Below are positions 13,305 through 55,100 of a stretch of 64,000 nt of DNA, in pieces (within the stretch, counting starts at the first letter, position 1; every line of letters begins with the position of its first letter). Position numbers and translations under genes: made by a program. Source of the stretch: Thermoanaerobaculia bacterium (lineage in GTDB: Bacteria; Acidobacteriota; Thermoanaerobaculia; Multivoradales; UBA5704). The notes under the pieces are model-generated. The model worked only from the letters and a program-made list of their open reading frames with translations, ran no database searches and was not told the DNA's origin. The stretch is taken from the NCBI GenBank assembly GCA_044226625.1, contig JBGAGQ010000017.1, positions 23,978 to 87,977 on the forward strand, read 5' to 3'.

Positions 13305-14375
13305 ATGAACGCCGCCAAGACCGTCACGCCGTCGCAGTTGATGGACTTCCTGCTCAACGTGGCGGTCGTCCGTCCGGTCTTCATTTGGGGGCCGCCGGGG
13401 ATTGGCAAATCGAGCCTGGTCGCTCGGTTCGCCGAGCAGCTGGGCCTGCACTGCGTTTCCCTCCTCGGCAGCCAGCTCGCGCCGGAGGACCTGATCGGCG
13501 TGCCGCAGGTGACCGACGGCGTGAGCCGCTTCTGCCCCCCGGCCGAAATCGCGCGGAACGAGCCGTACTGCCTCTTCCTCGACGAGCTAAACGCCTGCTC
13601 GCACGAGGTTCAGAAGGCGTTCTACAGCTTGATCCACGAGCGCCGGATCGGCGAGTACCGCCTGCCCGAAGGGTCGATCGTGATCGGCGCCGGGAACCGG
13701 GCCCAGGACAGCGCGATCGTCAAACCGATGTCATCGGCGCTGCTGAATCGGATGGTTCACGTCCACCTGACCGTTTCGCACCGCGACTGGATGGCCTGGG
13801 CGCACACGAGCGACGTCCACCCGTTGGTGATCGAATACCTCGAGCTTCGTCCCGATCAGCTCTGGAGCGCGCCGCCTAAACACGAGGAGCCGTTTTCGAC
13901 CCCGCGTTCTTGGCACATGTTGAGCGACGCGCTTCATCAGTTCGGGGCGGGCATCCGCGACGAGGAGATCGAAGCGCTCGCTTACGGTTGTCTTTCACCG
14001 CAGCACGCGACGCAGCTCAAGGCGTTCGCCAAGCAGAAGCGAAGCCGTTTCGCGCTCCATGCCATCTTGAAAGGCGATTCCGGGTGGCCGCACGATCCGG
14101 CGGACCGCGATGTCCTCTACTTCCTCTCGCAGTCGTTTCGGACGCATCTGCAGCGCGAGCTGCCGCAAGATCCGCAGGGACTTCAGCCGCAGCACAAACA
14201 GCTTGCCCATCGCGGCAAGGCACTGCTCAAGGAGCTGGCCGCGATCAGCCTGGAGATGGCGCAGTTGGTCGTGGCGGAGGAGGGTGGCGACGCCGCGGCG
14301 GGGAACCTGCCGAGCTGGTTCCTGGTCGAGGTCGTTCGCGACCTGCCGCGCTTGGTCGAGAAACGTGCCCCGTAA
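13305..14375 (+). CDS. MoxR-like AAA+ ATPase (AAA_5 type)
   Basis: Walker A WGPPGIGKSS, Walker B CLFLDELN, sensor region GAGNRAQDSAIVKPMSSALLNRM. Confidence 0.85.
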   Translation: MNAAKTVTPSQLMDFLLNVAVVRPVFIWGPPGIGKSSLVARFAEQLGLHCVSLLGSQLAPEDLIGVPQVTDGVSRFCPPAEIARNEPYCLFLDELNACSHEVQKAFYSLIHERRIGEYRLPEGSIVIGAGNRAQDSAIVKPMSSALLNRMVHVHLTVSHRDWMAWAHTSDVHPLVIEYLELRPDQLWSAPPKHEEPFSTPRSWHMLSDALHQFGAGIRDEEIEALAYGCLSPQHATQLKAFAKQKRSRFALHAILKGDSGWPHDPADRDVLYFLSQSFRTHLQRELPQDPQGLQPQHKQLAHRGKALLKELAAISLEMAQLVVAEEGGDAAAGNLPSWFLVEVVRDLPRLVEKRAP

Positions 14376-16185
14376 ACCGGAAAAGCGGCGCGAGGACCCG
14401 GCCGATCAGGCGTATCGGGAGGGGACCGACGCGATCCGCAATCATCCGCTGTTCCTGCCGCTCACCTTTCGCACGGACTTCTACCGCAACGTCCACCAAA
14501 ACCTCTGCCCGCCGGGTGGTTGGGCGGTCGCCAACGTGCGGGGCCTCGTCTACTGCCACCCCAAGCGGCGGGCGAGCCCGGAGGAGTGGACCTGGGTGAT
14601 CGGACACTGCCTGCTCCACTATGGATTCGGGCATTTTCAGACTCGAGCCCGTCCCGACCTTTGGAACGTTGCCTGCGACTTCTTCATCGACCGCTTTCTC
14701 GCCGATTTGAAGCTGGGCCGGCGCCCCGCGGAGATCCCCGAGCTGAAGCTTCCACCCGGGGCGCCCGCGACCTCGGAAAACGCGCTGTACGACTGGCTGT
14801 TCGAAAACGGCGTTCCCGTGGAGCTTCGCGGCGGCGGGACCGCCGGACCGGGAGCGTTGGACCTTTCGTTCGAGGTGGACCGATGGCGGGGCAAGCTCAC
14901 GCCATACGGCAAAGAGTGGAGGGACGCGCTGGGCGCGGGGCTGCGCAACGCCGTCGCAGCGGCGGTCGACGTCGCGGGAGGTAAAGCGGCGAGCCTCACC
15001 GGGGCTACGGGGCCGACCACTCCTGCCCAACGCGGAAGGTCTTGGTTCATGACCCGCTATCCGCTGCTGGGAGCGCTCGCGGCCTCGTTCCGGCTGATCG
15101 AAGACGGCGAGGTCTGCCGCCGCCTGGACGTCCACGTGGCGGCGGTCGACGCCGAGGCGCGCGAGCTCTACGTCAACCCGCAGATCGGCATGGACGACGG
15201 CGAGGCTCGCTTCGTGATGGCTCACGAGCTGCTGCACGTTGGCCTCCGCCATCAGGCTCGCTGCCAGGGGCGCGATCCGTTCCTCTGGAACGTCGCGTGC
15301 GACTACGTCATCAATGCCTGGTTGGTGGAGATGGACGTGGGACGGCCGCCGGCTTTCGGAGTGCTGCTCGATCCGGAGCTGAAGGGGCTTTCGGCGGAAG
15401 CGATCTACGACCGGATCGTCGGCGACCTCCGCCGGTTTCGGAAGATTTCGACCTTGCGCGGTGTGGGCGTCGGCGACATCCTTCCGGGCAGAAACCCGCG
15501 CTGGTGGCAGGTAGGGGAGGGGGTGGCGCTCGATGAGCTCTACCGCAACTGCCTGACCCAGGGGCTGCTCTGGCACCGCGACCAATGTCGCGGTCTCCTC
15601 CCCGCCGGCCTGATCGAAGAGATCGAGGCGCTCGCGCAGCCGGTGATTCCGTGGGACGTGCAGCTTGCGCAGTGGTTCGATCACCGGTTCCCGCCCAAGG
15701 AGAAACGGCGCACCTATGCCCGTCCGAGCCGGCGCCAGATGGCGACTCCCGATCTGCCGCGACCTCGCTTGGCGCCCCTCGACGACGGCTCGATCCGCAC
15801 CTTCGCGGTGGTCCTCGATACCTCCGGAAGCATGGATCGGAAGCTCCTGGCCAAGGCGCTCGGCGTGATCGCGAGCTATGCCGCCTCGCACGAGGTCGAC
15901 GCCGTGCGGCTCGTGTTCTGCGACGCCGCCGCGTACGACGAGGGCTACGTCCGTGCGGAGGACATCGCGGGCCGGGTGCGGGTCAAGGGCCGCGGCGGCA
16001 CCGTCCTCATGCCCGGTATCGAGCTCCTCGAGAAGGCCCCGGATTTTCCGCGAAGCGGGCCGATCCTGTTGATCACCGACGGTTTCTGCGACGACCTCAC
16101 GATTCGCCGTGACCACGCCTATCTCGTGCCGGCGGGGAACTCTCTGCCCTTCTCTCCACGAGGTCCGGTGTTCGGGATTTCGTGA
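14365..16185 (+). CDS. VWA-domain protein with tandem DUF2201_N-type zincin-like domains (MoxR partner)
   Basis: Track ORF 14110..16185 trimmed to in-frame GTG 14365, overlapping the MoxR stop. HELLH at 15223..15237. A degenerate HCLLH at 14605..14619. C-terminal VWA with MIDAS residues (VLDTSGSM, GGT, ITDG). Confidence 0.8.
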   Translation: MPRKPEKRREDPADQAYREGTDAIRNHPLFLPLTFRTDFYRNVHQNLCPPGGWAVANVRGLVYCHPKRRASPEEWTWVIGHCLLHYGFGHFQTRARPDLWNVACDFFIDRFLADLKLGRRPAEIPELKLPPGAPATSENALYDWLFENGVPVELRGGGTAGPGALDLSFEVDRWRGKLTPYGKEWRDALGAGLRNAVAAAVDVAGGKAASLTGATGPTTPAQRGRSWFMTRYPLLGALAASFRLIEDGEVCRRLDVHVAAVDAEARELYVNPQIGMDDGEARFVMAHELLHVGLRHQARCQGRDPFLWNVACDYVINAWLVEMDVGRPPAFGVLLDPELKGLSAEAIYDRIVGDLRRFRKISTLRGVGVGDILPGRNPRWWQVGEGVALDELYRNCLTQGLLWHRDQCRGLLPAGLIEEIEALAQPVIPWDVQLAQWFDHRFPPKEKRRTYARPSRRQMATPDLPRPRLAPLDDGSIRTFAVVLDTSGSMDRKLLAKALGVIASYAASHEVDAVRLVFCDAAAYDEGYVRAEDIAGRVRVKGRGGTVLMPGIELLEKAPDFPRSGPILLITDGFCDDLTIRRDHAYLVPAGNSLPFSPRGPVFGIS

Positions 16186-16720: not shown

Positions 16721-17383
16721 ATGAAACCATCCACCAAGAAGGCGATTCGCTGGACGGCGATCGGTCTGGGCCTGGTCGTCGTCGCGGGCGTCACCTGGGC
16801 CTTGGTCACGATCGGACCGAGCAACGTCTGGGGAATGCTGCGCTACGACACGCGGAAAGAGGGGAAGCTTCAGGTCGGGGACTCGGCGCCCGATGTGGCG
16901 CTCCTCGCGCTCGACGGGAAGACGCGCGTCCACCTGCGCGAACGGGTGGGTGAACGGCCGCTCATCGTCATCTTCGGCAGCTACACCTGACCGCCTTTCC
17001 GGCGCTCGGTCGAGCGCCTCATCGATCTCCACCGCCGCTACGGCGACAAGGCCACGTTCGTCGCGGTCTACATCCGCGAAGCGCATCCGACCGACGAGTG
17101 GCAGATGGAAAGCAACGAAAAGGAAGACGTCTGCTATCCGCAGCCAAAGAGCACCGCGGCGCGGGTGGCGATTGCGAACGATTTCGTCCGCCGCTTCCAC
17201 TTTCCAATCCCGCTTTTGGTCGACCCGATCGAGAATCCGGCAGACAAGGTCTACGCCGGTTGGCCCGAGCGCTTCTATGTGATCGACGAGCAAGGGACGA
17301 TCGTCTACAAGGGAAAGACCGGCCCGTTCGGATTCCACCCCGAAGAAGTCGACGCCTGGCTCGCGAAGCGGTTCGCGAGCTGA
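16721..17383 (+). CDS. Iodothyronine-deiodinase-like thioredoxin-fold selenoprotein (Sec encoded by TGA 16988..16990)
   Basis: Track ORFs 16640..16990 and 17105..17383 share one frame, and TGA 16988 is the only stop between them. Read-through gives LIVIFGSYT-U-PPFRRS, then VAVYIREAHPTDEWQ and ERFYVIDEQGTIVYKGKTGPFGFHPEEV. GGAGGAG RBS before ATG 16721. N-terminal TM helix. Confidence 0.85.
17001..17018 (+). promoter_or_regulatory. Bacterial SECIS-like hairpin for UGA 16988
   Basis: GGCGCUC-GGUC-GAGCGCC, a perfect 7-bp stem starting 10 nt after the UGA. The GGUC apical loop resembles the E. coli fdhF SECIS loop as I recall it. Confidence 0.65.
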
Positions 17384-17511
17384 AAACGTGGGAACTCCCG
17401 AGCCTTCGCCGAAGGACAGACGGACTGCGTCGGGCCTCGTTCCGGCTCGCCGATCTAGAATGAGCCAGGATCATCGCGGTTCGTTCCCCTTCGACCGAGG
17501 AGCCCTTCTTC

Positions 17512-18396
17512 ATGAGCGTCGACAGCTTCCGCTTTGCCTCGCCGTTGATCAAGCGGTACTACCAGATGAGCCGGGTGACGAGGGAGCTGCCGATTCCTTT
17601 CACACGGCCGAGAAAGCCCATCTCTGAAAGTCGGATCTCGCTCGTCACGACGGGGGGCCTCTACCGCCGTGGCCATGACGAGCCGTTCGATCAAGACCGC
17701 GAGCGGCGCGAGCCGGCGTGGGGCGATCCGAGCTACCGCGCGATCCCGACCGACGTCGACTTGGCGGAGCTCGCGGTGGGCCATCTCCACATCAACCCGG
17801 ACGACCCCTCCGCCGATCCGAACATCCTCCTTCCGATCGACCGGATCAAGGAGCTCGTTGCGGACGGCAAAGTCGGCAGCCTCGGCGCCCGCGCCTACTC
17901 ATTCATGGGATACCAGGGCTTTCCCGCCGATCCTTCCGGTTGGAAGAAGATCTATGGACCGGAGGTGCTCGCGGCGCTCCAGGCCGATCGCGTGGACGCC
18001 CTCCTGCTCACCTCGGCCTGACTGGAGTGCGCGGCCAACGTGCCCGTGTTGGCACGTCTGTTCGAAGGCGGGGGGATCGCCACGGTCGTCGTGACCAACA
18101 TGCCCTTCTGGGCCGAACGGGTCGGAACCCCGCGAACGCTCGCCGTCGAGTTTCCTTTCGGTCACCCGCTCGGCGGCACGCACGATCGAGAGATGCAGCG
18201 GCGGGTGATCCTGGCGGCGCTCGAGCTCATCGAGCGAGCGAGCGCGCCGGGGGAGATCGAAGAGTTTCCGGAGAAGTGGGGCGGCTCGGTCGCCGAAGGG
18301 CGACGGATCTCCGAGCCGCGAATCCCCGCGCCGATCACCGCCCAGATGGGGCGCCACATCGGCGCGTTCCTGCGCGGCATGCGGCGTTCGGCCTGA
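17512..18396 (+). CDS. GrdB/PrdB-family (glycine/sarcosine/betaine/proline reductase component B-like) selenoprotein (Sec at TGA 18019..18021)
   Basis: Track ORFs 17512..18021 and 18040..18396 are in the same frame, separated only by TGA 18019. Read-through gives VDALLLTSA-U-LEC-AANVPVLARLFEGGGIATVVV and EFPFGHPLGG. This parallels the GrdB LTSTU-GTC...ERAGIPVV...PHPLGNP layout. Confidence 0.75.
18034..18053 (+). promoter_or_regulatory. SECIS-like hairpin for UGA 18019
   Basis: GCCAAC-GUGCCCGU-GUUGGC, a 6-bp stem beginning 12 nt after the UGA. The loop starts with G-U. Confidence 0.5.
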
Positions 18397-18490
18397 AGCG
18401 CGGCTTCGACTTCTCGCGGACGTTCGAGGCATCGATTGCGTATATCTCGGTACATTCGGGTTTTCCTGAGACTCCTTCCGGGGTGAGACG

Positions 18491-21199
18491 ATGAAAGTCA
18501 CCTTCGCGTATGCCGCCTTCGTGCGCCGATTCCTCTTTGCCTTCTCGTTCCTCTTCTTCTGCGGCGCCACGCTTCTCGTTCCTTTCGCCCGCGCCGTTTC
18601 CGGCGCGGCCAGCTCATCCCTTTCCGTGGAGCCGGTGGCGGACCTCGGCCCCCGGCCGGCGATTTCCCTGCGGACTTTGCCGCGGGGCGCGGTGCGAGTC
18701 GGGGACCGGATCTTCTTCTTCGCCTCGGACGAGGTATCACGTTCGGAGCTCTGGACCACCGACGGAACGCAGACGGGCACGCGGCGAGTCCTGGACGTCT
18801 CCGCCCTGGGAGTCGATTCCTCGATCGTCAGCGGGTCCGGACTGGTGGCGGCGCAAGGAAGGGCCTACTTTCAAACCCTCGATCCGCTCGCGGGCTTGCG
18901 GATCTGGAGGAGCGACGGCTCGCGAGAGGGGACGGTGCCGTTCTTCTCGTTGGATCTCTTCGATGACTTGGAACAGGCGCAGCCGCCGGAAGTCGTGACA
19001 GCGGCGTTGGGTCGTGATCTCCTATTCCTGAGGACGGGCGAGGAAGGGTTGTGGGACCTGTGGCGCACCGACGGCTCGCCGTCCGGGACTCGCCGTCTGG
19101 TGTCGCTGCCGGCTCCGTCGGCCTCGAGCTCCGGTGGGAGCCAGTTCTTTGAGGCGAAAGGGCGCGCGTATTTCGCGTTGCAAGATCAGTTCTCGACGGT
19201 GACGGATCTGTGGACGACCGCCGGAACGGCGGCCGGCACGGTTCGGCTCGCTTCCGTCCCTTCGCTACCGTCGGCACCGCGCCAGCCGGTCGCCGTGGGG
19301 GGGCGTCTCTTCTTCATCGGTTTCGAAGCGGATCACGGATTCGAGCTTTGGACCTCCGACGGCTCGCCCGCGGGTACGCGGATCGTCCGCGATCTGACGC
19401 CGGGACGGCGCAGAACGTTCTTCGAGCAGTTCTTTCCAGGACGGCGCGCCCTCTATTTCACCCTGTCAACGCCGAGCGGAAGGGAGCTTTGGCGGAGCGA
19501 CGGCAGCGAAGCCGGCACTTCCCGCCTGTCGACGGTCGACGGCACATTCGCCACACCCGCCGCGGAGGTCGAGGGCTCGCTGCTGTTCTTTCAGGCCGGC
19601 ACGCTCTGGCGCGCGCGCGGGACGGGCTCACCCCAACGTCTCGCACCGCGCCTCGATCCGTGCGGCCCGTCGGTCCTGGCCGCGGGCCGGTTCGAATTCT
19701 TCGCCGACGACGGCGCACGCGGCTGCCGTCTCTGGCGGAGCGACGGCACCGCCGGGGGTACCGTCCCGGCGGTCGCTTCACCAACCGATGCGTCGGAGGG
19801 GACGCTGGTCGCGCTCGAAGATCGTTTGGTCCTCTTCTCTCCCAACCTGTCGGAAATCCAGGTGATCGCCGGGGACCGCGTCATCCCGCTCCGGCGTCCG
19901 CGGGCCGAGCTTCGGTCGGGCGCCCCGACGTTCCTGGTCCCTTGGCAGGGCGGCATCGCCTTCGCGGCGAACGGCACGTCCCGTCGCGCGATCTACCGCT
20001 CCAACGGCACGGCGACGGGAACCCTTCCGATCGCCTCCGGGGACCTCTGGTCGCCGCTCTTCCTCGGTCTGCCTAGCGACCTCATTCCGCTGGGTGAAAA
20101 CCTCGCGTACCTGTCGCTCGATGGAGTCGGGTCTTCCGGTTCTTCACTTTCGGATACGAACCCAAAGCAGCTCGACGGCTATCCGGTCGGCGCCGCTCAT
20201 GACGGGCGCGTGCTCTTTTCCTTCGCCGGCCGCGCCTATTGGCTCACGCTCTCGGCCGACGGCCGCGACGTCGAGTTGCGAAGCACCGATGGCACGGAGG
20301 CGGGAACGGCGACCGTGAGCCGCCTCTTCGACGCGCCCGTCTCGCCGTTCGGTGGCGTGACCTACGTGCCCGATTTCTTCGTCGTCCGAGCTGAGCGCTA
20401 CCTCGCCTTCTTTTTCCCGGTCAACCCCAACGAGGTGTGGACGACCGACGGTACGGCGGCCGGTACGCGGAAAGCGGTTCGCCTCGACGGGCTCCACGAC
20501 GGCTTTCTGCACGCCGGGGTGGCGTTCGGCGACGGGATGCTGTTCTCGACTTGGGCGACCCAATCGCAACCTCGGATCTGGCTCACCGACGACTCGGCCC
20601 AAGGCGCTCATCCGATCGACAACTTGGCTATCCATTCCCTCGATCAGCGCCTGACTGCCGTGGGCCGCCTCGCGTTCTTCACCGCGAGGGATGGGGGAGG
20701 GGTGGAGCTTTGGGCGACCGATGGAACACCTTCGGGAGCTCATCGGGTTCGCGACATCGCGTCCGGGCGGCGCGGCTCGTATCCGCGCGACCTGACCGCC
20801 GTGGGCGATCGGCTGTTCTTCACCGCCGACGACGGAGCTTCCGGCCGCGAGCTCTGGTCGAGCGACGGCACGGCCGCGGGGACCGTCCGAGTCGCCGATC
20901 TGGTTCCCGGCCCCGGGGGCTCCTTCCCGCAAAAGCTGGCGGCCGTTTTGACCGAAGGTCCCGCCCCCGTGCTCGCCTTCGCGGCGAACGACGGCGTTCA
21001 CGGCCTGGAGCCCTGGCTCCTCGAAGCCGACGGAACGAGCGTCCGAATGTTGGCGGACGTGGCCCCCGGCTTCACCTCTTCGAGCCCGGCGGAATTCCTT
21101 TCCGTAGGCGCTCACCTCTATTTTGCCGCCACGACGCGTGCCACGGGACGGGAGCTTTGGAAGGCGACGCTCCAAGACCCTGAAAACACAACGCCTTAG
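18491..21199 (+). CDS. Secreted ELWxxDGT-repeat protein
   Basis: 902 aa. N-terminal signal-like hydrophobic region. About 15 copies of the (E)LWxxDG(T/S)xxGT motif (ELWTTDGTQTGT, ELWTSDGSPAGT, ELWATDGTPSGA, ELWSSDGTAAGT and others). Confidence 0.85.
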   Translation: MKVTFAYAAFVRRFLFAFSFLFFCGATLLVPFARAVSGAASSSLSVEPVADLGPRPAISLRTLPRGAVRVGDRIFFFASDEVSRSELWTTDGTQTGTRRVLDVSALGVDSSIVSGSGLVAAQGRAYFQTLDPLAGLRIWRSDGSREGTVPFFSLDLFDDLEQAQPPEVVTAALGRDLLFLRTGEEGLWDLWRTDGSPSGTRRLVSLPAPSASSSGGSQFFEAKGRAYFALQDQFSTVTDLWTTAGTAAGTVRLASVPSLPSAPRQPVAVGGRLFFIGFEADHGFELWTSDGSPAGTRIVRDLTPGRRRTFFEQFFPGRRALYFTLSTPSGRELWRSDGSEAGTSRLSTVDGTFATPAAEVEGSLLFFQAGTLWRARGTGSPQRLAPRLDPCGPSVLAAGRFEFFADDGARGCRLWRSDGTAGGTVPAVASPTDASEGTLVALEDRLVLFSPNLSEIQVIAGDRVIPLRRPRAELRSGAPTFLVPWQGGIAFAANGTSRRAIYRSNGTATGTLPIASGDLWSPLFLGLPSDLIPLGENLAYLSLDGVGSSGSSLSDTNPKQLDGYPVGAAHDGRVLFSFAGRAYWLTLSADGRDVELRSTDGTEAGTATVSRLFDAPVSPFGGVTYVPDFFVVRAERYLAFFFPVNPNEVWTTDGTAAGTRKAVRLDGLHDGFLHAGVAFGDGMLFSTWATQSQPRIWLTDDSAQGAHPIDNLAIHSLDQRLTAVGRLAFFTARDGGGVELWATDGTPSGAHRVRDIASGRRGSYPRDLTAVGDRLFFTADDGASGRELWSSDGTAAGTVRVADLVPGPGGSFPQKLAAVLTEGPAPVLAFAANDGVHGLEPWLLEADGTSVRMLADVAPGFTSSSPAEFLSVGAHLYFAATTRATGRELWKATLQDPENTTP

Positions 21200-21828: not shown

Positions 21829-21863
21829 GCGCGGTGCCTCCCCTCCGGCACCGCGCTTTTTTT
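21829..21863 (+). terminator. Rho-independent terminator
   Basis: gcgcggtgcc / ggcaccgcgc perfect 10-bp stem with an 8-nt loop, followed by TTTTTTT. Confidence 0.8.
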
Positions 21864-22001
21864 AGGCCCCTTTCCAGCGCAAGCGCTTCTTCGCGTTCGT
21901 GCTATCCTCCCCGCACTACTTTCGGTAGAGCTTTTCGGATCCCTCGTCCTTCTCGACGCCCGCTCGGGCGCCAAGGTTGGAGATTTCCTGGGAGGTCTGC
22001 G

Positions 22002-25000
22002 ATGGCGTTCAAGCGGTGGCTCTGGTCCGTCTTCTTTCCGCTGTTCGTCGCCTTGACGCTTCCCGCGTTCGGGCCGGTCACCGAGGTCGGCGCGCAGCCC
22101 GCGATTCCCTCGGGCGACATCTGCTCGGCGGACCTCCCGCTTCCCAGCGCTTTTCCCGCGAACAAGTCGGAGTACGAGATCATCCTCGGCCGCTTTTTCC
22201 GGGCGAAGTGTTACGAGAAGCTCGGTTGGCCGCACGATAAGCAGTTGCGGCCCACAGGGCCGACGGTGGCGGCGCTCGCCGCCGGAACGACCGATCCTCA
22301 CATGCCGCCCGCCTGGCAGACGACCACGCTCGGCACCCACACCACCGTGGTCATCTACTACTCGCCGGACGTCTTTCGCTGGATGTGCGAGACCGAGGCG
22401 CGGCACGATCCGAAATTCGTCGCCCAGTGCAAGGTGCGCTGCCCGACCTGCAGGCTCGAATCGGAAGGTACGGTTGCGCCGATCGCGCCGATCGCCGACG
22501 GCTCGATGATCATCAAGCTGATGTACGGCGCGACATCGGCCGAGGATCTCGAGAACCCGCAGGTGCCGACCGGCGAGGCGAACATGTTCGCCCACATGGT
22601 CAAAGACGCGAAGGCCTCGAAGGACGGTTGGTTCTGGGGCAACTGGGATCCGCAGGCGACCGAGTTCTCGCAGCTCGACTGGCCGCCGCCGGTGAACCTG
22701 CCGTATCCGTGGATGGGCTTCGGCTACTACTGCATGAACTGCCACGCCTCGGCCAAAGCCGAGTCGACGTTCTCGGATCTCAACAACGTGCTCGGCGACC
22801 CGGACACGTTCACCAAGTTCTATTTCCAGGACCAGCCGCCGATTCCTACGGTCGGGGCCAAAGAGCCGCCACCGATCGAGATGAAGTCGGCGCACGAGCG
22901 GTTCGAGGCGCTCCAGAACCTTCAGGCGCTCGGCACCGGCCCGCTGTGGAACGAGGTTCCCTGGCCGAACTCGGCGGTCAACCGGGTGAGCCAGCCCTCT
23001 TCGACCTATCGGCAGAGCTTCCTTTCGACCTACGGCGCGAAGCGGATCGTGCCTCCCGATTCGAAGACGATCCTGCCGCTCTACATGCCGCCTGAAGTTT
23101 ACGACCACCGATTCCCCGGGCCCGTGGCGCCGCCGCCGTTCATGACCTCCGATCAGTGCGTCGGCTGCCACGCGGCGGGCTCGACCGGTATCCACTTCGA
23201 CATGACGGTCCAGAAGCCCGATCAGCCGGCGTTCACCAACCTGGTGAACATCGCCGAATACGGCGAGTGGCGCAGCTCGCCGATGGGGCTCGGTGGGCGC
23301 GATCCGATCTTCTTTTCCCAGCTCGAAACGGAGCAGGCGGCGCACCCCGCGCTCGCGAAGCTCGCGCCCGACCTCTGCCTCCATTGCCACGGCGTCATGG
23401 GGCAGCGGCAGTTCTGCCTCGACCAGTTCCCCGACCGCGAGAAAGGGAACGCCGTCTGCAACAACACGGACCTCCTGGGGTTGAACCAGGACTCGCAGCC
23501 GATCGTGCCGCGGCGCCTGTTCACGCGCGAGCAGGTGAACGCCATCCCGTTCCGGGCGAAGACCGAACAGGACTTGCAGAACGCCAAATACGGCGGTCTC
23601 GCGCGCGACGGGATTTCGTGCACCACCTGCCACCACATCGAGATCGATCCGAAGACTCCCATCGGCCACACCTTCACCGGCGATTTCCGGACCGGTCCGG
23701 ACGACGTCCTCCACGGGCCGTTCGACAAGCCGCAGCAGGTGCCGATGGATCACACGCTCGGCAGCAAGCCGATCGAGTACCCGCTGATCCGCTCGTCGAA
23801 AGTCTGCGGTAGCTGCCACAGCGTCGTGCTCCCCGTGTTCGACGGCGACAAGCCGTGGGTGCGCCCCGGCGGCAAAAAGCCGGAGATCATCATCGAGCAG
23901 GCGACCTATCCGGAGTGGGTCTTCAGCGACTTCCGCGACGACGGGCCGACGCCGCGCTCCTGCCAGAGCTGCCACATGGCGTCCTCCTACCCGGGGCTGC
24001 CGTCGCCACTTACGAGCAAGATCGCCTCGATCCAAGAGGCGAGCAACATGCCGCAGACGGAGAACCGTCTTCCGCAGTCCGACATCGACCTCCAGCCGCG
24101 CTCGCCCTACGGCCGGCACACGCTGGTCGGTCTGAACGTCTTCTTCAACCAGTTCGCCCAGCAGTTCCCCGACATCCTCGGCATTCGGATTCAAGATCCG
24201 ATGCTCGGTGGCACCGGCATCGCGCCGCTCACCACCACCTACAACTCGATGATTCAGCAGGCGGACACGGGGACCGCGACGGCGGAGGTGACGGGCGTGC
24301 GGCAGACGGCGGATGCGCTCGTGGCGGACGTCAAAGTCACGAACCTCGCCGGGCACAAATTCCCCTCCGGCGTCGGCTTCCGTCGCGCGTTCCTGACCTT
24401 CGAGGTGCTCGATTCGGCGGGCAACGACCTTTGGATCTCCGGCCGCAGCACGGACGACGGCGTGATCGTCGGGCCGGACGGCTCGCCGATCGCGGGCGAG
24501 TTCATGTGGGGCAACGAGTGCACACCAGTCCCGGGCAAGGACCAGAAAACCCAGCCGCATTACGAGACGATCACCCGGCAGGATCAGGTCCAGATCTATC
24601 AGGAGCTGGTACGCGACCCGCGCGGCCGGCTCACCACGAGCTTCCTTTCGCTCGCGAACGAAGTGAAGGACAACCGCCTCCTACCGCGGGGCTGGACGCC
24701 GAGCGTCCAGCTGGCGGAGATGGACGGCCTCGGCAGCCCCAAGCTCTCCGCCGCGGCTCTCGTCCACCGCGTGCTCCCTGACCTGCCCGACGGCAAAGGC
24801 GGGACGGTCGACGACCCCTGGTACAAGCCGGTCTCTGAAGGGGGCAAAGGCGGGGGAGGGGACGAGCTGGTCTACGCCGTGCCGCTCAAGGATCTCAAAG
24901 GAACCGCGGTCTCCGTGCGCGTCACCCTCTACTACCAGTCGATTCCGCCGTTCTACCTCCAGGACCGCTTCTGCTCGACCCCGAACCGGCCGGACACCTC

Positions 25001-25157
25001 ACGCCTCTTCTTCCTCGCCGGGCACACGGACCTCTCCGGAACCCGGGCCGAAGGGTGGAAGCTCTCGGTGGTCTCGTCGGGGAGGGTGGCGGTGGAAACG
25101 AAGGCGGCGTCCGTCGAGCCTCCGCGAGAAGCGAGGCGTGGGGGTGGGAGTCGGTAG
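22002..25157 (+). CDS. Large secreted multiheme c-type cytochrome (six CxxCH)
   Basis: Track ORF 21834..25157 trimmed to ATG 22002 (GGGAGG RBS; signal peptide MAFKRWLWSVFFPLFVALTLPAFG). Heme motifs CMNCH, CVGCH, CLHCH, CTTCH, CGSCH, CQSCH. Confidence 0.85.
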   Translation: MAFKRWLWSVFFPLFVALTLPAFGPVTEVGAQPAIPSGDICSADLPLPSAFPANKSEYEIILGRFFRAKCYEKLGWPHDKQLRPTGPTVAALAAGTTDPHMPPAWQTTTLGTHTTVVIYYSPDVFRWMCETEARHDPKFVAQCKVRCPTCRLESEGTVAPIAPIADGSMIIKLMYGATSAEDLENPQVPTGEANMFAHMVKDAKASKDGWFWGNWDPQATEFSQLDWPPPVNLPYPWMGFGYYCMNCHASAKAESTFSDLNNVLGDPDTFTKFYFQDQPPIPTVGAKEPPPIEMKSAHERFEALQNLQALGTGPLWNEVPWPNSAVNRVSQPSSTYRQSFLSTYGAKRIVPPDSKTILPLYMPPEVYDHRFPGPVAPPPFMTSDQCVGCHAAGSTGIHFDMTVQKPDQPAFTNLVNIAEYGEWRSSPMGLGGRDPIFFSQLETEQAAHPALAKLAPDLCLHCHGVMGQRQFCLDQFPDREKGNAVCNNTDLLGLNQDSQPIVPRRLFTREQVNAIPFRAKTEQDLQNAKYGGLARDGISCTTCHHIEIDPKTPIGHTFTGDFRTGPDDVLHGPFDKPQQVPMDHTLGSKPIEYPLIRSSKVCGSCHSVVLPVFDGDKPWVRPGGKKPEIIIEQATYPEWVFSDFRDDGPTPRSCQSCHMASSYPGLPSPLTSKIASIQEASNMPQTENRLPQSDIDLQPRSPYGRHTLVGLNVFFNQFAQQFPDILGIRIQDPMLGGTGIAPLTTTYNSMIQQADTGTATAEVTGVRQTADALVADVKVTNLAGHKFPSGVGFRRAFLTFEVLDSAGNDLWISGRSTDDGVIVGPDGSPIAGEFMWGNECTPVPGKDQKTQPHYETITRQDQVQIYQELVRDPRGRLTTSFLSLANEVKDNRLLPRGWTPSVQLAEMDGLGSPKLSAAALVHRVLPDLPDGKGGTVDDPWYKPVSEGGKGGGGDELVYAVPLKDLKGTAVSVRVTLYYQSIPPFYLQDRFCSTPNRPDTSRLFFLAGHTDLSGTRAEGWKLSVVSSGRVAVETKAASVEPPREARRGGGSR

Positions 25158-46042: not shown

Positions 46043-46134
46043 GCGAGGCGGCGGACGGCGTGTCCCCCTTTCGGCTCCCGTTCGCACAGGAGCGATAGCC
46101 ACTCGCCAAGCAGCCCGCCCTCGAACCTCCTCTC

Positions 46135-49100
46135 GTGCCGCCGCCCCTCGATCCACCGACCGCTGAGCGGCGGGAGCTTCCCACGGAACCGCCTCTTCGG
46201 GCGCCGATGGCGCTCGGCCAAGAGGCGCTCTGGTTCCTCTCGAAGCTCGCTCCGGACTCCCGCGCCTACCATCTCTGCGGTGCCGCCCGGCTCGTCGAGC
46301 CCCTCGCTCCGGGCCTTCCCGAGTCGCTCCGGCACGCGTTCTCAGAGCTCTCCGCGCGACATCCGGCTCTCCGCACGACGTTCGGCGAAGGCGAGGACGG
46401 GCGTCCGGAACAGCGGATCGGTGAGGCCCCGGGCATCCCCTTTCGATTCGAGGTTGCCGCGGGAACTACGGAATCCGAAGCGCTCTTGGCGGCGCACCTC
46501 GATCTTCCGTTCGATCTCGGCCGCGGGCCCCTCGCGCGGGCCGGGCTGATCGCGAACGGCGACGAGGCGGTGCTCTGGCTTGCGGCGCACCACCTGGTCG
46601 CCGATTTCTGGTCGCTCGCGGTGATGCTCCGAGATCTCGGAGAGGTTCTCGCGGCCCAACGTGCGGACCTCGCTCCAGGGGATCCCGCGCCGGAACGTGA
46701 GGCCGAGGGTACTCCCGGGAAGCGCGGAGGCGGCGGTCCGCAGCTCACCTATGCGCAGTGGGCGCTCTGGCAACGGGACCGCGCGGAACGAGAGGAGGGG
46801 CGGCGCGAGCTGGAGGCCTGGCGCCGTCTTCTCGCGGGAGAGCTGCCGCCGCTGGAGCTGCCGACGGATCGGCCGCGGCGCCCCAGGGAGACCTGGGCAG
46901 GGGGGGCCGTCGACATCAGCTTGAGCGAGAAGGCGACGCGGGCGCTCGCGCAGATCGCGAGAGGCGGCAAGACGAACCTATTCGCCGCGATCGTGACGGC
47001 GTTTCAAGCGTTTCTCGGCCGCCTGTCCGGACAGGACGAGCTGATCGTGGGTACTCCGACCTCCGGACGGTTCGGCGCTCGGGTCGCCGACCAGGTCGGA
47101 TATTTCGTCAACCCGGTGCCGATCCGAGCCGATCTCTCGGGAGATCCCTCGATTCAGGGGTTGTTGGCGCGCCAGCGGTCGGTCGTCCAGGCCGCGCTCG
47201 CGCTGCAGGCTTTTCCATTTTCCCGATTGGCCGAAGAGATCCAGGCGGAGCGCCAGACCGGGCGCGCGCCACTCTTCGACGTCATGCTCGCCTATGAGAA
47301 AGCGCGCGGTGGAGAGGGCTTCTGGGGCTTCGCGCTCGGCTTGCCCGGAATGCGCGTCGACCTCGGCGGCCTGGCGCTCGAATCGCTGCGGGTCGAGCCG
47401 TCGGGTTCGCCGTTCGACCTCTCGCTCGCGGTTGCGGAGGTCGGCGGCGGCCTCGCCGGCTCGTTGCGCTACTCGGAGGAGCTGTTCGACCGGTCGACGA
47501 TCGAGCGCTGGTCGCGCTGGCTCATGCGTTGGCTCGAGTGGATCGCCGCGGCGCCTGCTCGGCGGTTGTCCGAGGTGCCCTATTTCTCGGCGGAGGAGAG
47601 TGCGGAGCTCTGGGCGGATCGAGGGCGCGAGGAAGGACCAGAGCCGCGGGAAAGGCGGATCCACGACTTCGTCGAGACGTGGGCGCGGGAGCGGCCGGCG
47701 GCGCCGGCTTTGGAGTCGGAGCATGAGCCGGGGCGGCGGTACACGTGGGCGGATTTGGACGCGCACACCGATCGGCTGGCGCGGCGGTTGGCGGGGTTGG
47801 GTGTCGGACCGGAGAAGGTGGTCGGAGTTTCGATAGAGCGCTCGGTCGATCGAGTGTTGGCGATGGTCGCGATCTGGAAGGCGGGCGGGTGCTATCTGCC
47901 GATCGATCCGGAGTTGCCGGTCGAGAGACGACGGCTGATGGTGGTGGATTCGGGGACGGTAGCGCTGGTCGGCCGGAGTGCCTACTGGGAGGACCTGACG
48001 TCGGGGTGGGAGGGGTGGCACGGGCGCGTAGCGCCGCTTCTTCTCAGGAAGGAGAGTGGGCTTCCAGAGACGGAGGACTTCGGACCGGAAGAGCTGCCTC
48101 GATCGGCGGTGGCGGAAAACCTTGCGTATCTGATTTATACGTCCGGGTCGACGGGGACTCCGAAGGGCGTGGGAATCAGCCATCGCCATGCCGTGGGGCA
48201 CTTTGCGGCGGCATCGCGGTTCTATCGAATGGATGGGACCGACCGGGTGGTGCAGTTCGCCTCCGCAAGCTTCGACGTTTCGATGGAGCAGGTGGGCGTC
48301 GCGTTGGCGAGTGGGGGCGAATTGGTGGTGCGCGGACCGGAACTGCCGAATCCGTTGGAGCTTTCGGCGTGGATGACGCGTTGGGGCATTACGAACGCGA
48401 ACCTTCCGACCGCCGTTTGGACGGAGTGGAGCCGGGCGGAAGATCCGCTGCCCGAGGGTTTGCGGGTGCTGGTCACGGGCGGCGAGGCGATGACCCCCGC
48501 GGCGGCGGAGCGGTTTCGGAAACGGATGGCGATGCGGCCGACGTCTCCCGTGGTCTTCAACGGCTACGGTCCGACGGAGACGGTGGTGACCGCCACCTGC
48601 TTCGACCTCAGAGGCGAGATTTCGGACGGCAGCGCCGTTTCGATCGGAATGCTGCTTCCGAGGCGGCATGGTGCGGTTGTCGATCGACGGGGCCATCTCC
48701 TTCCCCTGGGAATTCCGGGCGAGCTCGCTCTCGGCGGCCTGCTCGCGCGGGGGTATCTCGATCGGCCGGACCTCACGGCCGAGCGGTTCCGTCCCGACTT
48801 TCTGGCCGGGGCGCCGGTCGGAGGCCGCCTCTACCACACCGGCGACCGCGTCCGGCTTCGGCTCGACGGTACGCTCGATTACCTCGGCCGCATCGATCAA
48901 CAGATCAAGATCCGGGGCATCCGCATCGAACCGGGGGAGATCGAGGCCGCCATCGAAACGCACCCGGCGATCCGGGAGGCGATCGTCTTCGCCCGCGAGT
49001 CGTCGCTCGGTCTCCGGCTGATCGCCTGGGTTCGACGGGTAGAAGGAGCGACGGAGGACGAGGCGGCGCCCGCTGTGCTGCGCGCGTTCCTCAAAGATCG

Positions 49101-52100
49101 GCTCCCCGAGGCGATGGTGCCGGTGGCGTTCGTCGCGGTCGAAGAGTGGCCGATCGGAGCGAGCGGCAAGGTCGATCGGCGCGCGTTGCCGGAGCCGAGT
49201 TTCGCGAGCGGAGAGGCCGAGCGAATCGCGCCTCGGACGCCGCTCGAAGTCGAGATCGAAAGATTGTTCGCCGAGCTTCTCGGGTGCGCGGAGGTTGGCG
49301 CCGAAGAGGACTTCTTTGCGCTCGGTGGGCATTCGCTCCTGGTGACGCAGCTGGTTTCGCGGATTCGGCGGGGGTTTGGGGTGGAGTTGGGCCTTGCGGA
49401 GCTGTTTGCTGGGGCGACCGTCGCGGGGATTGCGGCGCGGGTGGCTTCGGAGAAGGAAAAGCGAAAGCTCATCGAGGGGAGTGAGGTCCAAGCGATCGAG
49501 AGGGTAGCGCGCGGGTCGGACGACGTGCCGCTGTCGTTTGCTCAGGAGCGGTTGTGGTTCGTCGATCGACTGGAGCCCGGACGGGCGACGTACAACGTCG
49601 GGTTTCGGTTGGTACTCGGAGGCGAGCTAAGGGTGCCCGCGTTGGAGGCGGCGCTCGCCACTGTGGTCGCACGGCACGAGCCGTTGCGAACGCGGTATGC
49701 GCAACCGGGGGACGTCGCCCGGCAGGAGGTCGATCCTCCTTCGGTGAGCTTTTCGCGCTGGCCGCTCGTCGATCTCGCGGCGGTGCTCGATGCGGGAAGA
49801 CCGGTCGAAGCGGCGCGCATCGGGCGAAACGAGGGTCGCCGACCGTTCGACCTCGCACGAGGTCCGGTGTGGCGCGCCGTGCTGGCCCGCCGCGGCCCGG
49901 CGCTCCATGACGCGATCTTCACCTTCCACCACATAGCGATCGACGGCTGGTCGCTCGCGGTTTTCTCGCGCGAGATCGCCGAGGTCTACTCGTCCTTCGT
50001 CGAGAAGCGCCCCGCACGTCTTCCTGAGCTGCCGATCACCTACGCGGACTGGGCGATCTGGCAGAGGCGCCACCTCTCGGGCGAGCGCTACGAGCGCGAG
50101 CTTTCCTGGAGGCGATCGCACCTCAAGGGCGCGCCGGAGGCGACCGAGCTTCCCGTCGATCGCCCGCGACCGGCCGTGCCGAAACGGAACGCTGCCCAGG
50201 TCCGCCGCACTCTGCCGTCTCAGTTGGCAAAGTCGATCGCCACCCGCGCGAACGCCGAAGCCTCGACTCCCTTCATGATGCTTTTCGCAGCCTGGGCAGG
50301 CCTCCTGAGCCGCCTAGGTTCGGGCACCGATCTCGTGATCGGAACCCCGATCGCGAACCGCAACCGCGCCGAGACGGAAGGCCTGATCGGGTTCTTCGTC
50401 AACTCGCTCGCGATCCGGGTAACCGCCGATCCCTCCGCGCCGTTACGGTCGTTGGTCTCCTCCGTGCGGGAGGCGTCGGTCGGAGCGTTCGCTCACCAGG
50501 ACTTCCCGTTCGAGAGATTGGTAGCGGAGCTCGGCGTCACGCGCGGAGGAAACGTCCCACCGATCTACCAGGTTTCGTTCGCATTCCAGAACCTCCCGGT
50601 GCCTGTGATGCTGCCAGGGCTGACGACGACGGTCGAAGAGCTGGACGGCGGCGCAGCGAAGCTCGATCTCGGGTTGGTGGTGACGCCGGTCGAAGATCGG
50701 CTGGAAGCGCAGTTGGAAGTGAACCTCGATCTGTTCGATCCAGCGACCGGAGCGCGGCTGCTGGCCGGGTTCGAGCGAATGGCCTGGGAGTTGACAGAGG
50801 CCCCGGAGCGGCTGCTCGCTGAAGCCGAGCTTCTGGGGCGGGCGGAGCGGCATCAACTGCTCTACGAATGGAATGAGGGCGGGGGACAGTTGCCCGGCCG
50901 GGTCATTCACGACTTCGTGCGGCGGTGGGCTCGCGAACGGCCGGACGCGTTGGCGTTGGAGTCGGAGCATGAGCCGGGGCGGCTGTACTCGTGGGCGGAG
51001 CTGGACACGCATACCGAACGTATGGCGCGGCGGTTGGTGGGGCTGGGTGTGGGCCCGGAGAGGGTCGTCGGGGTTTCGATCGAGCGGTCGGTCGATCGCG
51101 TATTGGGGATGGTGGCGATTTGGAAGGCGGGCGGTTGCTATCTGCCGATCGATCCGGAGTTGCCGGTCGAGAGACGACGGTTGTTGGTGGTGGATTCGGG
51201 GGCGGTGGCGGTCGTTGGCCGGAGTGCCTACTGGGAGGATCTGACGTCGGGGTGGGACGGGTGGCACGGTCGGGTGGCGCCGCTGCTTGTCAGTAAGGAG
51301 GGAGGGCTTCCGGAGGGGGAGGACTTCGGAGCGGAAGAGCGGGCTCGATGGGCGGTGGCGGAAAACCTTGCGTATCTGATCTATACGTCGGGGTCGACCG
51401 GGACTCCGAAGGGCGTGGGGATCAGCCATCGGCATGCGGTGGGACATTTCGTGGCCGCGTCTGGGTTCTATCGGATGGATGGGAGCGACCGGGTGGTGCA
51501 GTTCGCCTCCGCGAGCTTCGACGTTTCGATGGAGCAGGTGGGCGTCGCGTTGGCGAGTGGGGGCGCATTGGTCGTGCGCGGGCCTGAGATGCCGAATCCC
51601 TTGGAGCTTTCGGCTTGGATGACGCGGTGGGGCATCACGAACGCGAACCTTCCGACGGCTGTTTGGACCGAGTGGAGCCAGGCTGAGGATCCCCTGCCCG
51701 AGGGGTTGCGGGTGCTGGTGACGGGCGGCGAGGCGATGACCCCCGCGGCCGCGGAGCGATTCCGGAAACGGATGGCGATGCGGCCGACGTCTCCCGTGGT
51801 CTACAACGGCTATGGCCCGACGGAGACGGTGGTCACCGCCACCTGTTACGACCTCCGCTTTGGGCGCCTCTCGGAATCGGGCTCGGTTTCGATCGGCCGC
51901 CTCTTGCCGAGTCGCACGGGCTACGTGGTTGACGGGGAGGACCGGCTGGTACCGCTGGGCGGAATCGGCGAGCTGGTGCTGGGTGGTCTGCTCGCGCGAG
52001 GCTATCTCGATCGTCCAGACCTTACGGCCGAGCGATTCCGTCCCAATCCCTTCACTGACAAAGACGGCGAGAGGCTGTATCGAACCGGCGACCGCGTTCG

Positions 52101-55100
52101 GCAGCGGGGCGACGGTAGCTTCGACTATCTGGGCCGACTCGATCAGCAGATCAAGATCCGCGGTTTCCGGATCGAGCCGGGGGAGATCGAAGCGGCGCTC
52201 GAAGCGTATCCGCACATCAAAGAAGCGATCGTGCTGGCCCGCGACTCGGCCGCGACGGGCAAACGGTTGATCGCCTGGGTACGACGCGCCGGAGACGGCG
52301 CCAACCCTCACGCCACGTCCGACTCGCTGTCCTCCGAGCTGAGCTCATTCCTCAAGGGTCGATTGCCCGACTACATGGTGCCGATGGCGATCGTCGAGGT
52401 CGACGAGTGGCCGCTTTCGCCATCGGGCAAGATCGATCGGCGCGCTCTGCCCGATCCTGCGTTCCAAGAGACATTCGAGAAGATTGCACCGCGCACGCCG
52501 ACGGAAGAGATCGTCGCGGGGATGTTCGGGGAGCTTCTCGGCGCCTCCGACGTCGGGGCCGAGGCCGATTTCTTCGCCCTCGGTGGCCACTCGCTGCTCG
52601 CGACGCAGTTGGCGTCCCGCATCCGAAAGACGTTCGGCGTCGAGCTTCCCCTCGCAGAGCTTTTTTCGGGTTCGACGGTCGCGCAAATCGCCGAGCGGAT
52701 CGAGGCGGCCTCGGGCGCGGCTCCGGCGCCGGCGATCGTTCGTGCGGCCGACGCCGAACGGGAGGGTGTTCTCTCCTTCGCCGAGGAGCGCCTTTGGTTC
52801 CTGGACCGGTTGGCGCCGGGACGATCGACGTACAACGTCGGTTTCCGCCTCTCGCTCAGGGGGCCCCTGGTGCCGTCAGCGCTGCGCTCCGCGTTGGCCG
52901 GGGTGGTGAGCCGGCACGCTCCGCTTCGGAGCCGATTCGGGGAGCGAGAGGGAATTCCTTTCACGACGATCGGGCCCGCGGAGGCTATGGATGGCTTCCG
53001 CCTCCCGAAGATCGATCTTTCGGTTCTCGGGTCGAAACGGAAGAGAGAAGGCGCGCGGGTGGCCGCTGCGGAAGGGCGGCGTTCGTTCGATCTTTCGCGC
53101 GGGCCGGTTGTTCGCGCGACGCTCGTGCGCATCGACACGGAGCGCCACGATCTGCTGGTGGTCTTTCACCACATCGCAACGGACGGCTGGTCGCTCTCGG
53201 TCTTCTCGCGCGAGGTGGCCGAGCTGTATGCCGCCGCGGTCGAAGGACGCCTGGCGGTGCTCCCGCCGTTGTCGATCGAGTACGCCGACTGGGCGGTCTG
53301 GCAGCGCGCGTGGCTCTCGGGTAAGAAGTATGCCGGGGAGCTCTCGTGGTGGCGAAGCCGGCTCGAGGGCATGCCGGAGACGATCGACCTGCCGAGCGAT
53401 CGGCCGCGGCCTCGGGGTGAGGCGATGCATGCCGCCGAATGGGTACGCCGCGATCTCGGTAGCGACTTGGCCGCACGGATCGGCGCGCGGGCTCGTGCCT
53501 CGGGCTCGACGCCGTTCATGGTTTTGCTCGCGGCGTGGGCGGGTCTCCTTTCGCGGCTGGGGGCGGGTGGCGACGTTCCCGTCGGGGCGCCGATCGCGAA
53601 TCGCAACCGGTCTGAGATCGAAGGTCTGATCGGGTTCTTCGTCAACTCGTTGGTGATGAGGGTCCGGGCGGAGGCCGGCGCCACGCTCGGGATTCTCCTC
53701 GAAAACGCGCGGGAGACCGCGCTCGCGGCGTATGCCCATCAGGATTTCCCCTTCGATCGGCTGGTCGGCGACCGGGCGGGCGCGCGCGGAGGGGGAGCGC
53801 CGCCGATGTTCCAGACCTCGCTGGTCTTCCAGAACCTCCCCGAGACGGCGGAGCTGCCGGGGCTCTTGGCGACGATCGAACCGCTCGACGGTGGCGTCGC
53901 CAAGCTCGACCTGTCGTTGGTGATCACCCCACGCAGAGCGGAGGACGGTTCCGGCTTGTCCGCCCTCCTGGAGATCGATCTCGATGTGTTCGACCCCGCG
54001 ACGGGCGCGCGGCTTCTCGCCGGTTTCGAGCGTCTTTCGGAGCAAATGGCAAACCAACCCGATCGGCTTCTCGCCGAGGCGGAGCTGCTTGCCCTCGAGG
54101 AGCGGCATCAGCTGCTCGTCGAATGGAACGATGGCGCGGCGGGGTTTCGCGCCCCGGTGCTCTGCATCCACGACTTCGTACGGAAGTGGGCGCGGGAACG
54201 GCCCGACGGTTTGGCTCTCGAGTCCGTGCATGAGCCCGGGAGACGCTACACCTGGGCGGAGCTGGAGGCGCACACGGAACGGCTCTCCCGACGGCTCACG
54301 GCGCTCGGTGTGGGACCGGAGGGGGTGGTCGCCGTGTCGCTCCCCTGGTCGGTCGATCGCCTGCTTGCGATGGTTGCGATTTGGAAGGCGGGAGGCTGTT
54401 ATCTGCCGGTCGATCCGGAGCTACCCGTCGAGCGACGGAGGCTCCTTCTGATGGATTCCGCGGCGGTGGCGTTCGTCGGCCGCACGGCTTTCTGGAACGA
54501 GCTAATGGAGGAATGGGAACCGCGGGGCGCGGGTTTCGCGCCGCTCCTACTCGATGAAGCTAGCGGTTTGCCTCTGGAGTCTGGACCGGAGGGGAATTCG
54601 CGCGAGGCCGCGCCCCAGGGCCTGGCCTACCTGATCTACACGTCGGGTTCGACGGGAACGCCGAAGGGAGTTGCGGTCTCGCACGAGGACGCGGTGGGGC
54701 ATTTCGCTTCGGCCGCCGCGTTCTATCGCATGGATGCAAGCGAGCGGGTGATCCAGTTTGCCTCGGCGAGCTTCGACGTCTCGATGGAACAGGTGGGAAC
54801 GGCCCTCGCCTGCGGCGGCACGTTGGTCGTGCGCGGGCCGGAGCTGCCGCCCCCGCTCGATTTGACCGATTGGCTGGAGCGCCATCGGATCACGCATGCG
54901 AATTTGCCGACGGCGGTCTGGGCCGAGTGGAGCCGCGCGGACGGACCGCTGCCGCGGGATCTGCGGGTGCTGGTGACGGCGGGCGAGGTGATGTCGCCCC
55001 AGGCCGCGGAGCGCTTTCTCGTCCGGGCCGCGGAGAGCGATGTGCCGCCGAGGATCTTGAACGGCTACGGACCGACCGAGGCCGTGGTGATCGCGACCTG

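Follow-up and report, generated by a model that had tools for sequence, protein, structure and literature searches.

The DNA analysed here, a stretch of 64,000 nucleotides from a Thermoanaerobaculia bacterium that is referred to in the following as the window, has a G+C content of 67.7% and carries on its forward strand the coding sequence of a PrdB-like candidate selenoprotein at positions 17512..18396. A Shine-Dalgarno-like GAGGAG (17497..17502, + strand) can be read from the sequence 9 nt 5′ of the ATG. The first open reading frame (17512..18021, + strand) encodes 169 amino acids and ends at an in-frame TGA at 18019..18021, after which the frame is open up to the terminating TGA at 18394-18396. 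When this internal triplet on the + strand is taken as the codon for selenocysteine 170 (U170), the coding sequence comprises 294 codons and the read-through peptide is ...VDALLLTSA-U-LEC-AANVPVLARLFEGGGIATVVVTNMPFWAERVGTPRTLAVEFPFGHPLGG... or, over a longer extent, ...LLLTSA-U-LEC-AANVPVLARLFEGGGIATVVV...EFPFGHPLGG. The TGC at 18028..18030 (+ strand) encodes Cys173, the second position of a U-x-x-C motif and the putative resolving cysteine. It had been claimed in an earlier note on this DNA, made from the letters alone, that two open reading frames lie here in one frame and are split only by the TGA at 18019..18021, and both the coordinates and the peptide were confirmed exactly. TGA is also the ordinary stop codon of many genes of the window, for example uvrC (7120) and an amidohydrolase gene (10463), and is therefore not a reassigned codon in this organism. 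A scan for promoters and terminators between 16200 and 18700 gave nothing above shuffle expectation.

A scan of one genome per GTDB species yielded 213 relatives of the gene, the best 80 loci of which are designated L005-L084. Two Acidobacteriota metagenome-assembled genomes (MAGs), from the Holophagales (78% identity) and the Thermoanaerobaculia (76% identity), and one Actinomycetes MAG are among these best 80 of 213 relatives, and nearly all others belong to the Chloroflexota, mostly to the Anaerolineae. Matches of the read-through protein in tblastn at 60-78% identity span about 287-294 residues (L001, L005-L008). Codon 170 is TGA in 79 of the 79 loci with a complete gene, and Cys173 is invariant in the same 79 loci. 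The half downstream of the TGA is demonstrably translated, with a mean pairwise amino-acid identity over the 79 loci of 0.61 downstream of the TGA and 0.61 upstream of it. The motif of the family is U-P-[DE]-C and that of the window copy is U-L-E-C. A proline directly follows the selenocysteine position in 78 of the 79 relatives, and the window has CTG (Leu171) at 18022..18024, which is either a genuine, functionally odd variant of the active site or an error of sequencing or assembly. One locus, L084 (JAIWHF010000117.1), lies on a contig that was binned as a Methanosarcinales archaeon and carries an Anaerolineales-type copy of the gene. Its 57 nt from the TGA onwards are identical to those of L059 and L065 and differ by one base from those of L077, and the contig name reports a coverage of 0.33; L084 is probably mis-binned rather than archaeal.

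With four exceptions, the 120 best database homologues have lengths of 167-191 residues, most of them exactly 169, and stop at the same place; the matching 118-residue C-terminal open reading frames carry the annotation 'hypothetical protein' throughout. The four exceptions are full-length. One of them, P0012, shares 42% identity with the window protein and has a Cys codon, TGT, at the selenocysteine site. P0101 has a tryptophan there in the database, but its DNA (L166) has TGA, and translation of the locus with table 11 does not reproduce the deposited protein; therefore the gene caller used another code. In the remaining two, P0009 and P0011, the region around the site is missing from the alignment. 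Some public gene calls thus translate the selenocysteine TGA as tryptophan, namely P0101 and probably also P0378. A more distant full-length homologue, P0358, has TGC (Cys) at the site. With P0012 as query, 1081 representatives were found library-wide at E values up to 1e-3, many of them full-length proteins of 240-495 residues with C-P-x-C at the selenocysteine column. Of 53 distant homologues that were examined, 46 match Pfam GRDB, most have CxxC at this column, and all match the PrdB model below its cut-off except P0396. The comparison with cysteine-containing homologues proposed in the earlier note thus placed cysteine at the selenocysteine column in P0012, in P0358 and in most of the 53 distant homologues. 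The clade found here is almost exclusively selenocysteine-type and is dominated by Anaerolineae. The 118-residue C-terminal fragments were left out of the protein alignment, in which MAFFT had wrongly placed their first 19 residues at the end of the N-terminal half. The gene contains an internal quasi-repeat, 17959..18015 and 18040..18096 (residues 150-168 and 177-195), in which GPxVAxxLxAxxVDxxLLT before the selenocysteine resembles VPVLARxxExxGxxTxxVT after it, strongly enough for MAFFT to stack the C-terminal fragments on the wrong segment. The two units may represent two similar helix-strand elements flanking the active site.

Downstream of the TGA a family-conserved SECIS-like hairpin, CGUGCC[CGUGUU]GGCACG, is located at 18039..18056 on the + strand, as identified from the RNAalifold consensus of 80 sequences, base pairing and synonymous constraint. 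Its stem is formed by 18039-18044 and 18051-18056 and its loop by 18045-18050, and an additional pair, A18038-U18057, extends the stem in the window. The hairpin starts 17 nt after the UGA, and the loop CGUGUU starts 23 nt after it and contains GU. The bacterial SECIS model has an apical loop that contains G/U and lies 16-37 nt downstream of the UGA; the loop of the window hairpin fits this description in position and GU content. In the gap-free alignment of 80 sequences the consensus is CGUGCC[CGUGYU]GGCRCG; the six core pairs are standard in 78-80 of the 80 sequences, and one of them, a compensated pair, varies between U-A, U-G and C-G (56/20/4) and is broken in none. Pairing over all seven pairs of the extended stem was 90% and fell to 13-46% when the 3′ arm was shifted by 1-3 columns. 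The strongest evidence for the conserved hairpin is the synonymous constraint on stem and loop: the codon entropies of V177 (0.10 bits), P178 (0 bits), V179 (0 bits) and A181 (0.89 bits) are the four lowest of the 70 conserved four-fold columns of the gene that served as reference (mean 1.60 bits, sd 0.39). As an isolated 24-mer the window hairpin folds at −11.2 kcal/mol (z = −3.0). When the same stretch was folded for other members, a TGA relative reached −9.9 kcal/mol, whereas P0012 (TGT) and P0358 (TGC) reached −5.6 and −2.3 kcal/mol, respectively, against −11.2 kcal/mol for the window; the hairpin is degraded or lost in both cysteine-codon homologues examined.

The hairpin that had been put forward in the earlier note, GCCAAC-GUGCCCGU-GUUGGC at 18034-18053, starting 12 nt after the UGA, is present in the window, and the two hairpins are mutually exclusive there, the minimum free energy and centroid structures being different. 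Single-sequence folding z-scores around the UGA are non-significant in this 68% G+C context, so only comparative data tell the two hairpins apart. In the alignment of 80 sequences only 70% of the cells of the alternative hairpin pair; 59 sequences have lost its outer G-C pair and 50 one of its A-U pairs, and none of the 80 shows a compensatory change. The claim that the gene has a SECIS-like hairpin of its own therefore stands as far as a stem-loop just downstream of the TGA is concerned, but the register 18034-18053 is unconserved and has to be replaced by 18039-18056. An Rfam scan of 16500-18600 at E values up to 10 returned two chance-level matches only and no SECIS family.

A second gene with a conserved in-frame TGA is located 1 kb upstream. 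It encodes a membrane-anchored deiodinase-like selenoprotein (16721..17383, + strand; TGA at 16988-16990, hairpin at 17001-17018) with the motif FGSYT-U-PPF, scoring 124.5 bits with Pfam T4_deiodinase and 205 bits, below the cut-off of 250, with the NCBIfam model deiodinase_rel. Its hairpin, GGCGCUC[GGUC]GAGCGCC, starts 10 nt after the UGA. The TGA is kept in 78 of 78 soil-metagenome relatives where the site was found, and among 64 distinct sequences the hairpin core CGCUC[GGUC]GAGCG is paired in 57-62. The deiodinase-like selenoproteins of bacteria have been recognised as a family before (PMC1088965). The occurrence of a second, unrelated gene with a conserved in-frame TGA and a hairpin argues that the organism decodes selenocysteine. 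The adjacency of the deiodinase-like and the PrdB-like gene is unique to the window among the loci compared; a functional link between the two was considered and rejected, the adjacency being absent from L001, L005, L006 and 80 metagenome loci of the deiodinase-like gene. Pfam scans of the approximately 30 open reading frames detected no selA, selB or selD within the 64-kb window, and no selC was found in it either. ARAGORN found no tRNA in the window, and no tRNA-Sec in the window or in 60 related loci.

A UGA that is conserved in 79 of 79 loci and is replaced by Cys in some homologues is the pattern by which bacterial selenoprotein genes are recognised. Incorporation of selenium at U170 and binding of SelB can be inferred. 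A ribosome arriving at UGA170 would encounter the hairpin 17 nt downstream, within the sequence for the conserved peptide N-V-P-V-L-A-R, which would direct selenocysteine insertion. By analogy with bacterial SECIS elements, the hairpin would recruit SelB with Sec-tRNA(Sec), and after Sec170 translation would run for another 124 codons. Alternatively, another amino acid might be inserted at the UGA, such as Trp, Cys or Gly through near-cognate or suppressor decoding, with the hairpin merely aiding read-through, and the database tryptophan in P0101 and the fact that no selenocysteine machinery was seen within the window could be taken to speak for this. However, the tryptophan is a caller artefact over a TGA in the DNA, the homologues with a sense codon carry cysteine, which is the usual counterpart of selenocysteine, the position aligns with the known selenocysteine site of PrdB, and TGA terminates many genes of the window, so that decoding as another amino acid is highly improbable. 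Even less credence is given to a pseudogene with a nonsense mutation or to two independent genes of 169 aa and 118 aa, the latter starting at GTG 18040, although this is how automatic annotation presents the locus everywhere, as a 169-aa 'GRDB' open reading frame and a 118-aa 'hypothetical protein'. Against such a split stand the invariance of the TGA across three phyla, the conservation of the six codons between TGA and GTG (P-[DE]-C-A-x-N) with the invariant Cys173, and the continuity of the cysteine homologues across the site. Moreover, no conserved Shine-Dalgarno sequence precedes the GTG, a GGAG being present only where codon 172 is GAG, and the invariance of GTG 18040 is explained by its location within the hairpin stem.

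The family assignment was based on profile and pairwise searches with the read-through protein. Pfam GRDB (PF07355) was matched with 37 bits (E = 3.3e-9; gathering threshold 22 bits) by residues 28-168 on profile positions 214-346 of 347; this profile ends at the selenocysteine site and covers the N-terminal half only. The best NCBIfam match was TIGR04483, the equivalog model of D-proline reductase PrdB, with 118.7 bits and thus below the equivalog cut-off of 300 bits, in an alignment that crosses the TGA (protein residues 30-255, model positions 20-233 of 238). TIGR01918, the glycine/betaine/sarcosine/D-proline reductase selenoprotein B subfamily, scored 46.5 bits against a cut-off of 65.45, and the models of GrdB, GrdF and GrdH and of 'various selenoprotein B' were all below their cut-offs, with only the C-terminal halves of the models aligned. 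P0396, from a HMMER search of the whole library, scores 453.2 bits on TIGR04483 and is a genuine PrdB in its cysteine form with the motif GGCGTCHRS. The window protein is 30% identical to P0396 over 241 residues (BLASTP, E = 2e-38), and U170 and C173 fall exactly on the two cysteines of its C-G-T-C. Two further statements of the earlier note, namely membership of the GRDB/PrdB family and collinearity of the selenocysteine position with reductase component B, are upheld by the Pfam score and by this alignment. Judged from its sequence, the product is a short-form PrdB-like member of the GRDB superfamily and is an equivalog neither of PrdB nor of a Grd protein B.

A sequence search of the PDB with the read-through protein gave nothing at E values up to 1. 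A confident AlphaFold2 model of the cysteine homologue P0012 (pLDDT 81, pTM 0.83) has an alpha/beta fold; structural statements rest on this model of a 42% identical protein and not on the window protein itself, the alignment of the C-terminal half being shallow. The positions corresponding to U170 and C173 are predicted to lie in a loop between a beta-strand (163-167) and a helix (176-186). A strand-loop-helix placement of this kind is typical of redox-active CxxC centres. Foldseek comparison of the P0012 model with the PDB gave no match at E values up to 1e-3, and all TM scores were below 0.3 (FtsZ and KaiC as noise).

The neighbourhood was analysed for reductase partners at two levels. Pfam scans of the approximately 30 open reading frames of the window detected no GRDA, Gly_reductase (PrdA/GrdE), GrdC/D or PrdC, in agreement with the observation in the earlier note that no grd or prd partner is visible there. 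Clustering of all open reading frames within 7 kb in 81 loci showed wide sharing only of the two gene halves and of open reading frames overlapping them; no other cluster exceeded 15 of the 81 loci, the count reached by the next most frequent neighbour. The eight recurrent neighbour clusters that were scanned comprise GDPD, an acyl-CoA ligase fusion, a polysaccharide deacetylase, a ferredoxin-like protein, an M3 peptidase, an enoyl-CoA hydratase, an ABC ATPase and a protein of the exo/endonuclease-phosphatase family. Consequently, no partner of the prdA, grdA or grdE type is present in the window or among the recurrent neighbours scanned within 7 kb of the 81 loci. The recurrent neighbours reflect lineage synteny and not a system, and at the level of the neighbourhood (7 kb, 81 loci) both the locus and the clade as a whole are correctly called 'orphan'.

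By analogy with PrdB, the product can be inferred to be a selenol/thiol redox enzyme. Its selenolate would attack an electrophilic centre of the substrate, Cys173 would resolve the adduct to a selenenyl-sulfide, and a thiol reductant, e.g. thioredoxin, would re-reduce the latter; the mechanism of PrdB that serves as the basis here is that of Kabisch et al. 1999 as summarised in passages of PMC1088965 and PMC13188914. Proteins of the U-P-[DE]-C clade appear to act with no pyruvoyl partner of the PrdA/GrdE type encoded nearby, which makes classic D-proline or glycine reductase chemistry less likely. The region 17512..18396 is thus likely to constitute one short PrdB-like selenoprotein of 294 residues with hairpin-directed selenocysteine, acting as a stand-alone redox enzyme. 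A more far-reaching proposal, to which slightly less than an even chance is given, is that the U-P-[DE]-C clade represents a self-sufficient selenoenzyme whose chemistry is unlike that of the Stickland reductases and which has no pyruvoyl partner. The near-obligate use of selenocysteine, with a cysteine codon only in P0012 among the four full-length proteins of the 120 best homologues and in the distant P0358, would then point to a reaction that cysteine cannot support. If this proposal is correct, an uncharacterised selenium-dependent activity is common in soils and sediments (Anaerolineae, Acidobacteriota).

The competing explanation is that the protein is the B subunit of a canonical Stickland-type reductase for D-proline, glycine, sarcosine or betaine, whose PrdA/GrdE, GrdA and electron-transfer partners have their genes at other places in the genome. 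PrdB is indeed the best profile match, the active-site U/CxxC is collinear with that of a genuine PrdB, and JGI pipelines label the homologues 'D-proline reductase (dithiol) PrdB'. Nevertheless, this explanation is considered unlikely. The scores fall far short of the PrdB equivalog cut-off (118.7 versus 300 bits) and of that of TIGR01918 (46.5 versus 65.45 bits), the motif is U-P/L-[DE]-C and not C/U-G-T-C, and relative to PrdB the protein has approximately 25 extra N-terminal and 40 extra C-terminal residues. Neither the window nor the set of recurrent neighbours within 7 kb of the gene at 81 loci includes a prd or grd partner, whereas the literature gives grdA-grdB and prdB-prdC as typical operons (PMC13188914).

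The short PrdB-like selenoprotein was also compared with known systems. With the D-proline reductase PrdB of the Clostridium sticklandii and C. difficile type (TIGR04483) it shares the superfamily PF07355, a similar size class, the columns of the Sec/Cys and of the second Cys of U/CxxC, and an in-frame UGA closely followed by a hairpin. It differs from it by the window motif U-L-E-C (family motif U-P-[DE]-C) instead of C/U-G-T-C, by its N- and C-terminal extensions, by the lack of prdA, prdC and prdD/E/F nearby in the 81 loci, and by its hosts, which are Acidobacteriota, Chloroflexota and one Actinomycetes MAG and not clostridia. The pyruvoyl proprotein PrdA and PrdC/D/E/F, which are encoded with prdB in a D-proline reductase system, are accordingly missing from the window and from the recurrent neighbours within 7 kb at the 81 loci. 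In the case of GrdB, GrdF and GrdH (TIGR01917/01918, NF040794/5) the window protein matches the C-terminal half including the selenocysteine region (model positions approximately 215-420), but with 294 residues compared to approximately 430 for GrdB it lacks the N-terminal 210 or so residues. The motif U-L-E-C-A-A-N, moreover, has no third cysteine, in contrast to the UxxCxxC quoted for GrdB (PMC13188914), and none of grdA, grdE, grdC and grdD, which would make up a glycine reductase complex, is encoded within the window. Stand-alone CxxC GRDB-like proteins such as P0358, P0366 and P0376 are full-length, collinear proteins of 240-495 aa with C-P-x-C at the selenocysteine column; unlike the window protein they use cysteine, one Cys being lost in some of them, their identity is 25-40%, and the one examined for the hairpin, P0358, does not have it.

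Proteins of this kind have been recorded repeatedly in environmental DNA. 'Proline reductase PrdB' with UxxC and pfam07355 ranked third in abundance among the selenoprotein families of the Sargasso Sea with 42 sequences (PMC1088965), PrdB homologues were among the top selenoprotein families of the GOS data with 235 Sec and 110 Cys forms (PMC2398784), and homologues were listed in Anaeromyxobacter dehalogenans and Geobacter uraniumreducens, which are not Stickland fermenters (PMC1794560). The likeness of the window gene to this environmental PrdB family is one of description (pfam07355 and UxxC) and not of sequence comparison. The novelty that the earlier note implied for the kind of protein does not hold, since UxxC pfam07355 PrdB homologues have been catalogued since 2005 (PMC1088965, PMC2398784, PMC1794560), and the window gene is a further, ordinary member of a widespread family. 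What the present analysis adds is the correct register of the SECIS-like element and its exceptional conservation, the near-exclusive use of selenocysteine in the clade, the absence of a linked partner in 81 loci and the leucine after the selenocysteine that is found in the window only; the contribution is an added member and a cleaner description of the recoding element, and no new principle. The practical relevance lies in annotation, as the family is abundant and nearly always uses selenocysteine. In public databases this gene, like hundreds of similar ones, appears as two entries, a truncated 'GRDB/PrdB' open reading frame and a 118-residue 'hypothetical protein', and AACGUGCCCGUGYUGGCRCG over the peptide N-V-P-V-L-A-R provides a simple and specific signature for the repair of such split calls. 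JGI labels the N-terminal halves 'D-proline reductase (dithiol) PrdB', and in Acidobacteriota and Chloroflexota the label 'D-proline reductase' probably misleads metabolic reconstructions.

With regard to its genomic context, the PrdB-like gene is a syntenic chromosomal gene of an Acidobacteriota genome (Thermoanaerobaculia/Holophagales-like). In the closest genomes, L001 and L006, the gene order is Band7-Band7-...-PrdB-like-multihaem/P460-like-DDAH, and compared to these the window has two extra segments, 13305-17383 and 18491-21199. A pair of a MoxR-type AAA ATPase and a DUF2201 VWA/metallopeptidase is encoded at 13305..16185 (+ strand) and an ELWxxDGT-repeat protein (TIGR04534, 372 bits) at 18491..21199 (+ strand); both are absent from L001 and L006 and look like insertions specific to the window genome. 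Further downstream, a multihaem protein of 1,107 residues with several CxxCH motifs and a cytochrome P460-like domain is encoded at 21834..25157 (+ strand), and its match to the ExtKL multihaem (seleno)protein model is negligible (E = 2.7e-4). A link between the PrdB-like gene and this multihaem/P460-like protein was rejected, as the association is conserved only in L001 and L006 and not in L005 or the Chloroflexota. The end of the window is occupied by the single open frame of a giant non-ribosomal peptide synthetase (46099..64000, + strand), which exceeds 5,900 codons, runs off the end of the stretch and comprises condensation, adenylation and thiolation domains within its first 1,300 residues.
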